DNA of 64,000 nt from Octopus vulgaris (lineage: Eukaryota), in the NCBI GenBank assembly GCA_951406725.2, contig OX597817.1, positions 27,652,001 to 27,716,000 on the forward strand, in the 5' to 3' direction. This document shows positions 9,821 to 28,503 of this stretch, piece after piece (the first letter of the stretch is position 1; the number at the start of each line of letters is the position of its first letter). The notes beneath the pieces are model-generated. The model was not told the DNA's origin. It searched no databases and saw only the letters and a program-made list of their open reading frames with translations. Position numbers and translations under genes: made by a program.

Positions 9821-9892
9821 GGCCAGCCATGAAACTTGAACTCACATCTCTGTGATTACAAGTCAAGTGCTTTACCATTAAGCTAAACTGCC
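9821..9892 (-). pseudogene. tRNA-Thr(UGU)-like pseudogene or isolated SINE head
   Basis: GGCAGTT TAGCTTAATGGTAAAGC A CTTGA CT-TGT-AA TCACA...GTGAG TTCAAGT TTCAT GGCTGGC; acceptor and anticodon stems have mismatches. Confidence 0.6.
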
Positions 9893-12242: not shown

Positions 12243-12246
12243 TTGT

Positions 12247-12711
12247 GGAGGTGCAACAATGGCCCAGTGGTTAGTACAGCGGACTCACGGTCGTAGGTTA
12301 GCGGTTTCGATTCCCAGACCGGGCATTTGAGTGTTTATTGAGCGAAAATACATAAAGCTCCACGATACTCCGGCAGGGGTGGTAGGGAACCCCGCTATAC
12401 TCTTTCACAACAGCTTTCTCTCACTCTTTCTTCCTGTTTCTGCCTTGTCAAACTCTGTGTCACTCTGAATGTCCCCGAGAACTACGTCTGTGGAGTGTTC
12501 AGCCACTTGCACGTTAATAAATGAGCTGCGATGTCACTGGTGCCAAGCTGTATTAGTCTTTGCCTTTCCCTTGGATAACATTGGTGGCATGGAGAGGGGA
12601 GGCTGGTATGCGTGGGCGACTGCTGGTCTTCCATAAACAATCTTACCCAGACTTGTGCCTCGGATGGTAACTTTCTAGGTGCAATCCTATGGTCATTCAT
12701 GACCGGAGGGG
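12247..12711 (+). mobile_element. SINE family B (tRNA-like head) with tail type 2
   Basis: ggaggtgcaa..tggcccagtggttag...ggtttcgattccc head; tail gtcactggtgccaagctgtat...ggtcattcatgacc shared with the copy at 57903. Confidence 0.85.
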
Positions 12712-12908
12712 GAATTACAGTATATATATATATATATAACATAAGGGACTAAAGCCATCTGAATATGGCTAGGGACAGGGCAGGGTGGTGGGGGTGTTAC
12801 TGTTGCATTTAGCCCCAGGCGAACATCGACGTCGCCAGATAGGCCCGACACCGTCACGGTGTCCTTTAACCTGCAAAGGGAGATAATTCCCCGATGAAGC
12901 GGAAACCA

Positions 12909-12954
12909 CACACGGACCATGGTTTCAAGGTGTATTGCCTATCGTCAACGTGTG
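12909..12954 (-). ncRNA. Type I hammerhead ribozyme motif (C3U core)
   Basis: CACACG-UUGACGA-U-AGG caauaca CCU-U-GAAA-CCAUGG-UC-CGUGUG; GUC cleavage triplet. Confidence 0.75.
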
Positions 12955-13100
12955 GTAGGCCTCCGCTTCCTCGACGAAATCTTTTAGAGAATTATTATTG
13001 CTGTCGAACAGATTTTCGAAATCAGCAAATGTATTTTGCTTGAAAATCTATATATGAATATCCTGCAGAGTGAGATTTCGTCGAGGAAGCGGAGGCCTAC

Positions 13101-13146
13101 CACACGTTCACGATAGGCAATACACCTTGAAACCATGGTCCGTGTG
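13101..13146 (+). ncRNA. Type I hammerhead motif, G5C mutant copy
   Basis: cacacg ttcacga t agg caataca cct t gaaa ccatgg tc cgtgtg. Confidence 0.65.
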
Positions 13147-13488
13147 TGGTTTCCGCTTCATCGGGGAATCATCTCCTTTTGCAGGTTAAAGGACACCGTG
13201 ACGGTGTCGGGCCTATCTGGCGACGTCGATGTTTGCCTGGGGCTAAATGCAACAGTAACACCCCCACCACCCTGCCCTGTCCCTAGCCATATTCAGATGG
13301 CTTTAGTCCCTTATGTTATCGAGCAGTTACTGTCTATATCTCTTTTAGAGAATTATTATTGCTATATATATATAAATATACAAAAAATTCAGTGTGAATA
13401 CTTGATAATTGTAAGCACCTGTATATGCCATTTAGTGGTGTTTGTGATAGAGTATATTTATAAAAAAAAACACGATGCAAAGGATTTA

Positions 13489-13575
13489 GCGGTACATATG
13501 TTTCGGGCCTTTATTAGACGGTTTATATCAATACATAATTGATGTAAAATGTTGTCAATAGCCTTCTTCAGCCGC
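13489..13575 (-). ncRNA. Type I hammerhead ribozyme motif, canonical core, long stem II
   Basis: GCGG-CUGAAGA-A-GGC..~55 nt..GGCCC-GAAA-CAUAUG-UA-CCGC. Confidence 0.8.
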
Positions 13576-13713
13576 GTACAATTACTACTTCAAGGACATG
13601 TATTACATTATAAGTTTTACATTGAGGATGCAAATCCTCATAGTCGCTCTGTCGTACGTGACGATGAGGATTTGCAACTTATAATGTAATACATGTCGAA
13701 GTAGTAATTGTAC

Positions 13714-13801
13714 GCGGCTGAAGAAGGCTATTGACACACATTTTACATCAATTATGTATTGATATAAACCGTCTAATAAAGGTCCGAAACATATGTACCG
13801 C
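13714..13801 (+). ncRNA. Type I hammerhead ribozyme motif, canonical core, long stem II
   Basis: gcgg ctgaaga aggc...ggtcc gaaa catatg ta ccgc. Confidence 0.8.
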
Positions 13802-13850
13802 TAAATCCTTTGCATCATGTTTTTATTTTGATAAATAAATAAATAAATAA

Positions 13851-19876: not shown

Positions 19877-20599
19877 ATCTCACTATAGAGGTAAATTGTG
19901 TGTGTTCGTAACACATTGGATTCTATTAAAATTGTTTAAATGGTTTCTACCTTGTGTTAAATTTTTTTCGTGATCACCAGTCTCCAATCAAAACAAATTG
20001 CTGATTAATTTCTAGGATTTGAAAAATTCGAGCACTATTTAGAATCATGTACATTAATAGTTATTCAGAGTCCCACACTTTTCCTGACATAATGTCATTC
20101 CTGCGACATTAATAATTCCAATTCTGTAAGTCACGCTAGAAGCATCGCACATACCAAGCAAAGATAAACATTTATCATTACATATTGAAAGTCTAATCGA
20201 TGAAAAAAATGCATCCCTTCATAGTGTAATATAAAATATCTAATATCCCTTTTAATATTCATGAGTTATTCATTATGTAATTCAATCAAACATTATAAAC
20301 TGAATGCTCCTTCAGTTGTGTGTAAATTTGTTTGGAAAGTTAGTTAAACATAACTGATCAGCTTTTATTTTATTGGTTTCAGTCATTAGTTAGCAGTCAG
20401 TGCCTATTTAAAATAGCTACTTATTTTTTGTCAAATCGCTCATTTATATTATTCACATGAACCAACGCAACTCAAAGTCCCAGATAACACCATCGCATGG
20501 TATAAGTAGAAACAGAGACATATATGCATATTTGCATGCATGTATATATGACCAAATGCACACACACTCACACACATATATGTGTGTGTGCTTTTTTGA

Positions 20600-21340
20600 C
20601 TTCAATGGTAATATATGAAAACGATTATCTGGAACTGTGATTGTGACAGAAATCGCTCCGGCTTACGCCAATCTAATTGTGGTATACATGGAGGCCCAGA
20701 TATATAAACAATCTAAATTAAAATATGGCTTAGAATTCTACAAACGATACTTAGATGACTGCTTGATTCTGTGGACGCAAACATCTGAACGACTTATGGA
20801 TTTCAAAAACCTAATAAACAGCATAAACAATAGTATCATCTTCGCCATAGTATACATGAAAACTCAACTAACTTTCCCACACATCAGATTTTTAAAAAAA
20901 ACATTGAAACAGACATTCACTACAACCAAACAGATTCTAAAGAATATTTACTGTTCTCCTCATGCCATCCCATGAAAACGAAGGATGATACACCATTTAA
21001 TCTATCAAGAAGCATCTGCGCAACTGTCTCAATCTCTGAGACTCGCAATAAAAACTCCTCCAGGAACTTAAAAAATACTACTTATACTACAATATTCATT
21101 AATATTGATAGACGACTGAAGAAAACGCGCGAAAGCAATAGATATTCGAAACCTACGAAAAACCTTCCAGATACATCCTATACCCGACCCTTAATTACAA
21201 CACACAGGAATTTACAACATTATCCACCAGAACATTCCACTACGAGGACAAGACCCAAGAATGAAAGAAGTGTTCGAAATACACAAAATAATCAAAAGCA
21301 AAAGACAATCAAAACCTTTCAAAACATTCCACAGCAGCGC
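20600..21340 (+). mobile_element. Penelope-like element, reverse transcriptase relic
   Basis: APAYANL..YME, YKRYLDDCLILW, TDIHY...DS, HAIP / PFNLSRSICATVS. Confidence 0.85.
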
Positions 21341-24300
21341 GAAATTGCCTTACATAATTCCTACAGTGCTGTTTCTCCTATTTTGGTTTTCTTGTTTACT
21401 CTTGTAGATATAAGTTCTTAAACAATGATAAAGAAATTTCATTAATCGTTAATTGATTGGTCTTTTACACTGTTAGAAATTGTCGATTATTATTGAGTAT
21501 ATGCATCCTGCAATTTAGGAGTTACACACTGTTTAATATGATTTTACAACACTTTCTAAATCTATAATGCCTCTGTGAAATTGAACTTGAATTGTTTTTA
21601 CCTTGTTTCGAAATCGTAGCTTCACTGCCAGTATCTAATCAGAATAAATTATTCATAGCTGTTGCTGCTGTGCTCACGTTTATAGCTCTGCATCTAGTGC
21701 AACTTATTCGAGTGCTAATAGTAGATAACTTAATGGAAAACTTCGATTAAGAGATGAGAATTAATATTGCCTGTTTTTACACGGTAGAGAAAACATACAG
21801 AACAAAGCACTCCATTATCTATGAAGCCGATTACTGGTGTTTTCTATGTATTTGCTACAATTGAAAATCCTCCGGTGTGCACGAGTTTTTGTGTAGCACA
21901 AATCAGTTGTAGGCAGAATTATTCCAATCCAACTGCATTACACCATTGCATTCTTTTTCATTTCAAACGACTGATTCGTAAGCTTCTAATAGATATTTAC
22001 TAAAATGTATAAAGTATTTTTTAAAACATGTTTGTTCTTCCATCTGTCACTTTTCCGGAAACTGGTTCGTTGAAGTCACTTGAGAGATAGTCCTAACACA
22101 ATCGACTGTTAGTTTATCCAGCTTTCGTCTTGCCATCCTTTGATTTGCACACAAGGTATCAGTAAAGCCATGTCAGTTAATAGAGTAAAATTGCTATTTT
22201 CTTATGCCGAAACATAATAGTAAATATTGGGAAAGAGAAATGTCAGTCATCCGTTTAAAACGCGTGGCACTGGTTTCAATAGAAATCAACTATTTAGTGC
22301 CTTTATTTCATACTAACACAGTTTTATATGCATCACCACATTGCAACACGACAACCCAACAACAAAAATATGTACCTTTCCTCTTCAACATGACTTTGTG
22401 GCTCACTAAACAACACTTTATCAATGTAATCAATAAAGTCACTTTCTACTCTGGATTTTTGTACAAATGAATTTCCATATTACATTAACATGGCCAACAC
22501 GCTAAACATTTAACTGAGAGATCATTGTGTCCAGTTTCTGTATAGTAAGCATGAAGCTAGATTCAGTATTAAATTTGGAGCGGTTTTTAGATGTGTATTG
22601 ATTATACGAAATAGAAGAGGGACCGAGAAATATGAAAACGTTTTAATACTGAGTATAAAAACGTGATCATAAAGTGCTCTTTTAAACATTTCCTTACAGC
22701 TAACTTAAAAGACAATAGAATCTGTAAAAACAAGTAAAATAAAACTTATGATATCATGGATTAAGGTACAATTGTTTTCACTACTTTTATTTTAGGTTCT
22801 CATACACATGAAATAAATATATTTAATAAGCCAGTGTCTTTTACTTTTCACGTTAATTTTACAAAATCGAAAACTATAACTATTGATGTTTCAAAAGGTT
22901 TCATAGTGTGAGGATTTTATTTGTTTGAAAAGCATTGAATATGAAAAGAAACGAATGCTATGTCTTAAATGCCGGAAATATAACAGCATTGTTAATTTCA
23001 CAGCGTTACTTACAAGTGTGTGTTCTAGGTTTGTGTTGCAAAATGGGAAAGCTGAAAGCAGAGTAGGTACATTTATTATATTTCCTGCTGGCGGCGGTGG
23101 AGTGAATACTACATGTAATAGATTATAATTTGCTTAATAGAGAAAGAAGAGTAACATATAGTAGAAAATATTGGAGAATCTCAAATAGAAGGGGAAATAA
23201 CTCCACCAACTATAGACTTAATTTCACTAGTTTTTTTATGTCTAGGAAATAAACTCTCATCTTTGTAAGAAGGCAAGATGGGAGATACTGGAAAATATTG
23301 CTTATGTTAGACATCATCAGTAAAACACGGACCTTTCAAGCTTGCATTCATTAGCGCTCACAATATCACAAACTGAAAACAAGTCTTAAAAAATGTTAAC
23401 CTCAATAATTTGCATAACTGCGAAAAGCAAATTAAGGGAGATATCTGAAATGGATAGACGACATGAGAAATTCATTTAGATCGTGATGTACTGAATAACG
23501 TATCCAAATTAATTTCAATTCATTGAAATTACCTCTTACTTGCAACTAGATAACAAATTTCATCTCTATTTCATCTCTATTTCCAGAAAATATTTCAGCT
23601 TTTCATTAAAATTCCACACTGTCGTTTTGATTTCTTTCGTGTAGAGGCAAGTTGTAATTTAATTTCAAAAAATTTCCATAAGTCGTGCACTTCTTCAGTA
23701 CCTACACAGAATATCTACATTCATGGAATTCAACCATTCTAACTATTTTCCTTGAATAAATGTTTCTTAAAAGTTCTGAGTGTATGTATGGACGTACTGT
23801 TTTATTATTTTTTATCGGTAATACTATACAAAATTGACCCAAGTTCGATAATTGCATACATTGCATATATCAGACGTATTTTCAACAGAAAGAACATTTA
23901 TTATATCAAGTAAATTATAATCCTTTCTGGATTGTTCGATTAAAATCATAGTGATGGAAATCCACATGAAAATAAAAAATTTCAAATAATCTCCGCCATA
24001 AAAAGGGAGTAAATTTACAGAAAAGAAAATGCAAACACGCACACGGAGACATATATAGACACCGATCGACACCAGGGTACATACACACACATACACACAC
24101 ACACACATTCACAGATTTGTGTGTGTGTGCGAGGGCAGCAGCGTGTGTCCGTATTTCACTTTCTCTTCAGTTTATCGTCTGTTTAAATTCTAGATTTTCT
24201 TAAATTTCACATTTAAAGTGACGCTCCAACAATGATTTTAGAAAGAATCGTAGTTCATGCTAAAAAGAAAAAAAAACACGTTCTCTCGGTTGTTTGTCAA

Positions 24301-28107: not shown

Positions 28108-28503
28108 TCTTTATATATAAAAGTGAAGTTGTGTGTCTGTCTCCTACGATTTATATTCCTAACTACTCCCACATTTTGCGGTGCAGTGTAACCAAAAGCG
28201 GGTATCTTATAGTCGTGATTCATATCGAGCCCTTCTGGGTATTAGCGCGCGTGTGCGATGAGTCTACGATTAAAAATAAAATTTATCATCATTTTTACTC
28301 ATTTTTAATGCATTTTCTGCTATTATATAAGGGAAATAACTCTCTAAACATGTATTATTAAATCTCAGAACGTAAAAAGCTACAGTAACCCCCCCCCCTT
28401 TGTGGTTAGCCATATTCAGATGGCTATTATACTTTACATCTCTAAAAATGCTTATATAGTTACTTCCCTTACAAACCCGAGTAACGCCGGGCGATACTGC
28501 TAG
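28108..28503 (+). mobile_element. Complete non-autonomous Helitron (396 bp)
   Basis: A|TCTTTATATATAAAAG 5' end; subterminal hairpin cccg-agtaacgc-cggg; CTAG|T 3' end; inserted between A and T with no TSD. Confidence 0.85.

Follow-up and report, generated by a model that had tools for sequence, protein, structure and literature searches.

Animal non-LTR retrozymes are short non-coding units of 170-400 nt, dispersed in head-to-tail tandems. They were defined by Cervera and de la Pena (2020, PMC7229834), whose study covers elements of coral, mussel (350-390 bp) and axolotl and documents circular RNAs, and in which Penelope-like elements (PLEs) were proposed as helpers. Mobilisation of animal retrozymes by PLEs through circular RNA has been proposed, not demonstrated, there and by Li, Clavereau and Pollet (2026, 10.64898/2026.07.22.740005), who linked retrozymes to PLE ends and favoured local tandem expansion. 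Hammerheads are also documented in PLEs themselves (PMC4209133). An inverted copy and a short tail in (TA)n are the published hallmark of PLE insertions (PMC8557442), and in vitro two start sites of reverse transcription are marked by the tail (PMC11167929). In regard to cephalopods, no retrozyme was found in the literature: the main text of PMC7229834 has no match for cephalopod or octopus, its supplements could list one, and the accessible text of the octopus repeat annotation (PMC13282606) has no match for ribozyme or retrozyme.

The locus presented here lies within a 64,000-nucleotide stretch of the Octopus vulgaris genome, referred to as the window, and its features are collected in Table 1. 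We read it as a two-armed insertion of a young, non-coding tandem retroelement of 360 nt whose type I hammerhead has a variant core. Mobilisation is likely due to the RT-endonuclease of a PLE, acting in trans through repeated copying of one monomer-length, probably circular RNA, and we assign a probability of about 0.7 to this reading. An earlier note on this DNA had proposed a retrozyme family, which is supported by the copy number, the tandems, the inverted ends and the absence of an attached ORF. The family is real, young and of the retrozyme type; its insertions bear a clear Penelope footprint, and its core is non-canonical throughout. It can be classed as a variant of the animal non-LTR retrozymes already known. 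Like these, it has a non-coding tandem unit of ~360 nt (GC 47%) with one type I hammerhead per unit and a short palindromic stem III, it occurs alongside PLEs, and the base of its stem II is a U-U, like that of the axolotl HHR_Amex2. Unlike these, its core is fixed as CCGANGA or UUGANGA, its arrays are inverted and two-armed, ending at two fixed points and bearing a tail of 44 nt (the words 'inverted' and 'tail' have no match in the accessible text of PMC7229834), and no homologous PLE end was found among the PLEs compared. The second close relative is the insertion of endonuclease PLEs and of non-autonomous Chlamys elements such as MRC1, with which the octopus unit shares partial tandems, an inverted 5'-truncated copy, a tail at one end and (TA)n (Craig et al. 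2021, PMC8557442; Frangieh et al. 2024, PMC11167929), as well as the multicopy head-to-tail form of MRC1; it differs from them in having no ORF and in the length of its tail, 44 nt against the published 30-40.

Table 1 Features of the retrozyme insertion, in window coordinates
Feature	Position	Strand	Remarks
Left (TA)n target	12721..12735	none	
Inverted arm	12736..12982	-	Monomer positions 71-317, 5'-truncated; tailless, with the 'short' fixed end as outer end
Type I hammerhead motif of inverted arm	12909..12954	-	Core UUGACGA (C3U, minor subfamily)
Inversion junction	12980..12982		3-nt overlap common to both arms
Last 23 nt of preceding monomer	12980..13002	+	The 'terminal repeat' of the earlier note
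Single complete monomer, 361 nt	13003..13363	+	Outer end is the 'long' fixed end
Rod prolonging hammerhead stem I	13062..13185	+	
Forward type I hammerhead motif	13101..13146	+	
Forward hammerhead, stem I	13101-06/13141-46		
Forward hammerhead, core UUCACGA	13107-13		C3U and private G5C
Forward hammerhead, stem II	13115-17/13125-27		U-U at its base
Forward hammerhead, GAAA	13129-32		
Forward hammerhead, palindrome	13132-39		Predicted cut after 13140
3' helical domain, conserved	13237..13348	+	Helix 13252-59/13326-33 covaries across sister families
Penelope-type tail, 44 nt	13320..13363	+	Between two fixed 3' ends
Right (TA)n target	13364..13375	none	

Much of the architecture described in the earlier note was confirmed. 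The 247-bp inverted copy is present, 12736-12982 matching 13073-13319 at 98% identity; all nine named stem pairs (9/9) are complementary and lie where the note had placed them; and (TA)n occurs at both ends of the insertion. Six ATG ORFs of at least 40 aa overlap 12600-13500, of which the longest (135 aa) extends into the flank. In a natural circular monomer the longest frame has at most 59 codons. The two arms of the window copy differ at four sites, G5C among them, and its complete monomer folds better than shuffled sequences (z of -4.7 for the plus strand and -4.1 for the minus strand). The 23-bp direct repeat also exists, 12980-13002 being 100% identical to 13341-13363 at a spacing of 361, but its status as a feature of the element was lost: the variable inversion point happens to cut the preceding monomer there, and since this point differs between loci, the repeat is incidental and not family-wide.

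Both the many copies and the tandem arrays that the earlier note had expected were found, with a dispersed unit of 360/361 nt. A 32-nt hammerhead motif had 1311 exact matches in the genome, against none for a control, and a search with the unit, in which 40 of 1212 candidates were scored, returned at least 154 matches at 91-100% identity; in metagenome contigs, the unit had no match. Arrays on many contigs contain from 1 to about 18 units joined head to tail, and the motif occurs in 118 of 118 long monomers. From motif-per-locus ratios, the size of the family is estimated at about 400 loci. For an unselected sample, the first 100 motifs listed for one contig (C1) were traced to their 33 loci, and one long array was added. 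Twenty-three of the 33 were two-armed, with outer ends at monomer positions 317 and 361; the remainder comprised seven one-armed loci, one with a short second arm, one fragmentary and one running off the retrieved segment. TA runs adjoined 52 of the 56 fixed ends in this sample, and nearly the same figures were obtained for the top-match loci (ends at 317 and 361 in 23 of 30, TA runs at 50 of 54 fixed ends). The insertions are usually tail-out, their two fixed outer ends are 44 nt apart, and they consist of unit sequence only, in two arms, with no LTR-type repeat flanking a unique body. The circularly permuted ends suggested in the earlier note call for refinement: variation is limited to the 5' inversion point, and the 3' ends fall at two constant sites, with no random permutation.

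The hammerhead of the earlier note has the three-helix layout of type I, but its core, UUCACGA as opposed to the consensus CUGANGA, is not canonical, and the Rfam hammerhead models matched nowhere in the window at the gathering score, nor in 12500-13600 at E values up to 10. The canonical core, C3-U4-G5-A6-N7-G8-A9, is absent from the young family at large, which is a core variant: among the 1311 exact motifs, 1220 have CCGANGA and 87, spread over 56 loci, have UUGANGA; the sole CTGANGA match is the product of an inversion junction, and at least 1307 of the 1311 are non-canonical. The copy in the window is a member of the smaller subfamily, UUGA. Its G5C change was seen in one of 67 motifs among the 30 best loci, G5 is required for hammerhead catalysis, and the forward hammerhead of this copy is likely inactive through G5C. 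A UUGA locus contained 1.6 exact motifs on average (n = 56) and a CCGA locus 3.5 (31 loci on C1; p 7e-5), a difference to which the slightly greater divergence of UUGA copies contributes by depressing their count. In a tree, the UUGA copies were basal to CCGA, with weak support and a distant root (57% identity). Folding predictions for the circular monomer gave helix probabilities of 0.24-0.28 for stem I, 0.05 for stem II and 0 for stem III, and in the predicted linear dimer the palindromes were unpaired. The change found in the CCGA majority has a known counterpart in the U4C hammerhead of a viroid, which was slow in vitro and sufficient in vivo (as cited in Perreault et al. 2011, PMC3088659); in contrast to the viroid case, the octopus U4C has become fixed in an animal retroelement, across 1220 motifs of the genome, and stands in a type I hammerhead whose stem III is weak. 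The U-U at the stem II base is likewise tolerated (PMC3088659; axolotl HHR_Amex2, PMC7229834). Hammerhead searches that require CUGANGA overlook an entire active-looking family.

Sister families having the canonical core and the common stem III were retrieved as 43 pattern matches, of which 30 were examined; they align along the unit, and those with the same tail retain CUGAUGA. In the closest sister, stems I and II are identical to those of the young family and the core is CUGAUGA, so that the core of the young family is the derived one. In a covariation analysis of 21 sequences, 92% of cells were paired, with 43 double changes, and both-sided changes were found at five of six stem I pairs and two of three stem II pairs; stems I and II alone are informative here, as the search pattern itself had fixed the core and stem III in the sister loci. 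None of 500 shuffles reached this score, a comparison in which sequence kinship can by itself beat shuffles, and controls with slid positions gave 17-41%. The predicted type I fold is backed by this covariation across the older sister families. The U seven bases past the cut is invariant and the last A of loop II nearly so, in agreement with the type I tertiary contact. Two conserved helices draw their 3' strands from the tail; one of them has compensatory changes at one pair in 6 of 17 cases, and these helices are a candidate binding site for the reverse transcriptase. The older hammerhead units with the same tail form a superfamily (L031-L060, L145-L194) in which the foot of stem II is often unpaired or mismatched; some of them (L037, L054, L058) have a longer stem II, and these three were left out of the covariation set.

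These results bear on the view that the locus is a foldback DNA transposon, or satellite DNA, with a hammerhead-like motif by chance. Inverted arms, TA targets and the lack of an Rfam match would all be natural for such an element; nonetheless, the fixed ends of the arms are unequal and the centre is variable, the conserved core is surrounded by covarying stems I and II, and that core is canonical in the sister families. This alternative is largely refuted by the insertion geometry and the covariation, and we regard it as exceedingly improbable.

The arrays also carry information on the template. Monomers were 99.1% identical within loci (383 pairs) and 97.2% between loci (6520 pairs). Rare variants were fixed in both arms at five CCGA loci, e.g., in eight of eight monomers of L078, and variants confined to part of an array were found in only 2 of 33 loci (L070 and L094; L088 excluded and L094 included in this set). 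L094 (G000:C14) is a 12-unit array in which, unlike in other arrays, five variant sites are common to runs of adjoining monomers, possibly by later local duplication. True 5' breakpoints numbered one (of four pattern matches) at the predicted cut site and six (of seven) at a control site 12 nt away. There is, therefore, no pile-up of 5' ends at the cut site, by which the cleaved linear monomer was ruled out as template, and circles or uncleaved multimers both fit; the private variants common to both arms, together with the absent pile-up, fit a circular or uncleaved template. Contigs of the unit with the CCGA core were recovered from four sequencing runs (two organism labels, the RNA status of the runs being a guess), and three of the four loop back after 361 nt, as tandem DNA also would; among the runs listed as containing the unit, none is recorded as RNA.

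An uncleaved template could be linear. The unit might be a PLE-dependent, non-autonomous element copied from uncleaved linear read-through of homogeneous arrays, its hammerhead a decaying relic and no circle involved. The canonical core is gone from the young family, the predicted active fold is weak and the cut site lacks a 5' pile-up, all of which this account would explain; moreover, PLE reverse transcriptase starts internally on unprocessed RNA, a Poseidon PLE was inserted from uncleaved RNA in vitro (PMC11167929), and eight of nine Xenopus dimers were without cleavage (10.64898/2026.07.22.740005). The remaining motif, however, is exact over 32 nt in all 1311 copies, a weak point given the youth of the family, and the two departures from the standard hammerhead, U4C and the U-U, are a weak but viable natural variant and a tolerated one, respectively. 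In addition, near-identical arrays of 12-18 monomers with private variants in both arms would demand equally long, uniform sources. Overall, we consider the linear relic unlikely, though it deserves to be kept in mind.

As regards the helper, intact PLEs reside in the same genome. In one family (A), a 781-aa ORF with RT and GIY-YIG domains was found in 16 of 20 loci fetched; its ends lie in (TA)n, at two sites separated by 40 nt, and two copies are two-armed. A second family (B) is also present, and both have the CX4CXXC motif described for the Neptune and Nematis clades (PMC8557442). The Penelope-type inverted ends referred to in the earlier note were indeed observed, the family having two-armed insertions with a tail at one end, in the same geometry as these resident PLEs. 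A young two-ORF Penelope-like family at L128:744-5960 (G000:C6) has a 479-aa upstream ORF with no Pfam match, a 781-aa RT-endonuclease and identical pLTRs of 504 bp, in which the relaxed pattern detected no hammerhead.

Such geometry, or footprint, is also expected if the units are 5'-truncated ends (pLTRs) of an autonomous Penelope element that were later expanded locally by unequal crossing-over, a model proposed for vertebrate retrozymes (10.64898/2026.07.22.740005) and one that suits the older sister families, mostly found as short copies. The earlier note had named permanent attachment to a longer ORF-bearing Penelope element as one outcome that would overturn its reading. When scanned with two Neptune-type proteins as the only probes, PLE protein matches were found in 3 of 64 family loci (L018, L067, L083), none running into the unit, and in 0 of 11 one-armed loci; nor was an RT and GIY-YIG ORF found in or joined to the unit. 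The unit has no sequence in common with families A and B. When 50 PLE (endonuclease) loci (150 of 6136 candidates scored in the GIY-YIG scan) were searched by blastn and with an nhmmer profile of the retrozyme superfamily, only separate, neighbouring insertions were seen, and a relaxed-pattern hammerhead search of PLE loci found none. Among 80 sister-family loci, PLE protein matches occurred in only two (L055, L147), at a distance from the motif of about 0.8-1 kb. Near family B, a 45-nt match to the tail was rejected as a PLE part, being a sister retrozyme 800 nt past the PLE end. Furthermore, multi-monomer arrays always run unit to unit, and local crossing-over would fail to preserve both fixed ends together with private variants common to the two inverted arms. 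The truncated-end model is accordingly held to be quite improbable.

Under the preferred reading, i.e., copying of a probably circular monomer by a PLE in trans, the arrays would be transcribed and cleavage by the weakened hammerhead would be slow; it may proceed with protein assistance or in a dimer formed via the palindromic stem III. A host ligase would then close the monomers into circles, as in mussel and axolotl retrozymes. The PLE protein would bind the 3' helical domain, nick both strands of (TA)n and prime cDNA at two sites flanking the tail; both cDNAs would circle the same template and join 5' to 5', generating tail-out inverted arrays. With hundreds of young PLE-signature insertions, both arms from one monomer, beside intact young PLEs, this model of helper and circle is directly testable. 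More tentatively, and with rather less than even confidence, we suggest that the lineage may have expanded only once its ribozyme had been weakened: another core would have replaced the ancestral CUGAUGA, the U4C form with the longest arrays would have taken over, and slow or protein-gated cleavage would have kept circles closed for long enough to let a Penelope reverse transcriptase roll from two starts on one template. If this is true, rolling-circle reverse transcription of circular RNA is recorded directly in the genome by these arrays.

Several other repeats were noted in the window. A MITE-like fold-back element of ~383 nt, 86% self-complementary, adjoins the retrozyme at 13455-13837. 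On the other side, at ~12246-12715, a SINE-like repeat with a tRNA-like head was recognised by eye, and it is very deep in the sequencing runs examined. A tRNA-like Rfam match of 39.8 bits at 9821-9892 (-), which was not called by ARAGORN, is either a pseudogene or a SINE head. Farther downstream are a decayed Penelope-like RT fragment with five stops (20592-21347, +) and a short sister-retrozyme remnant (28375-28439).
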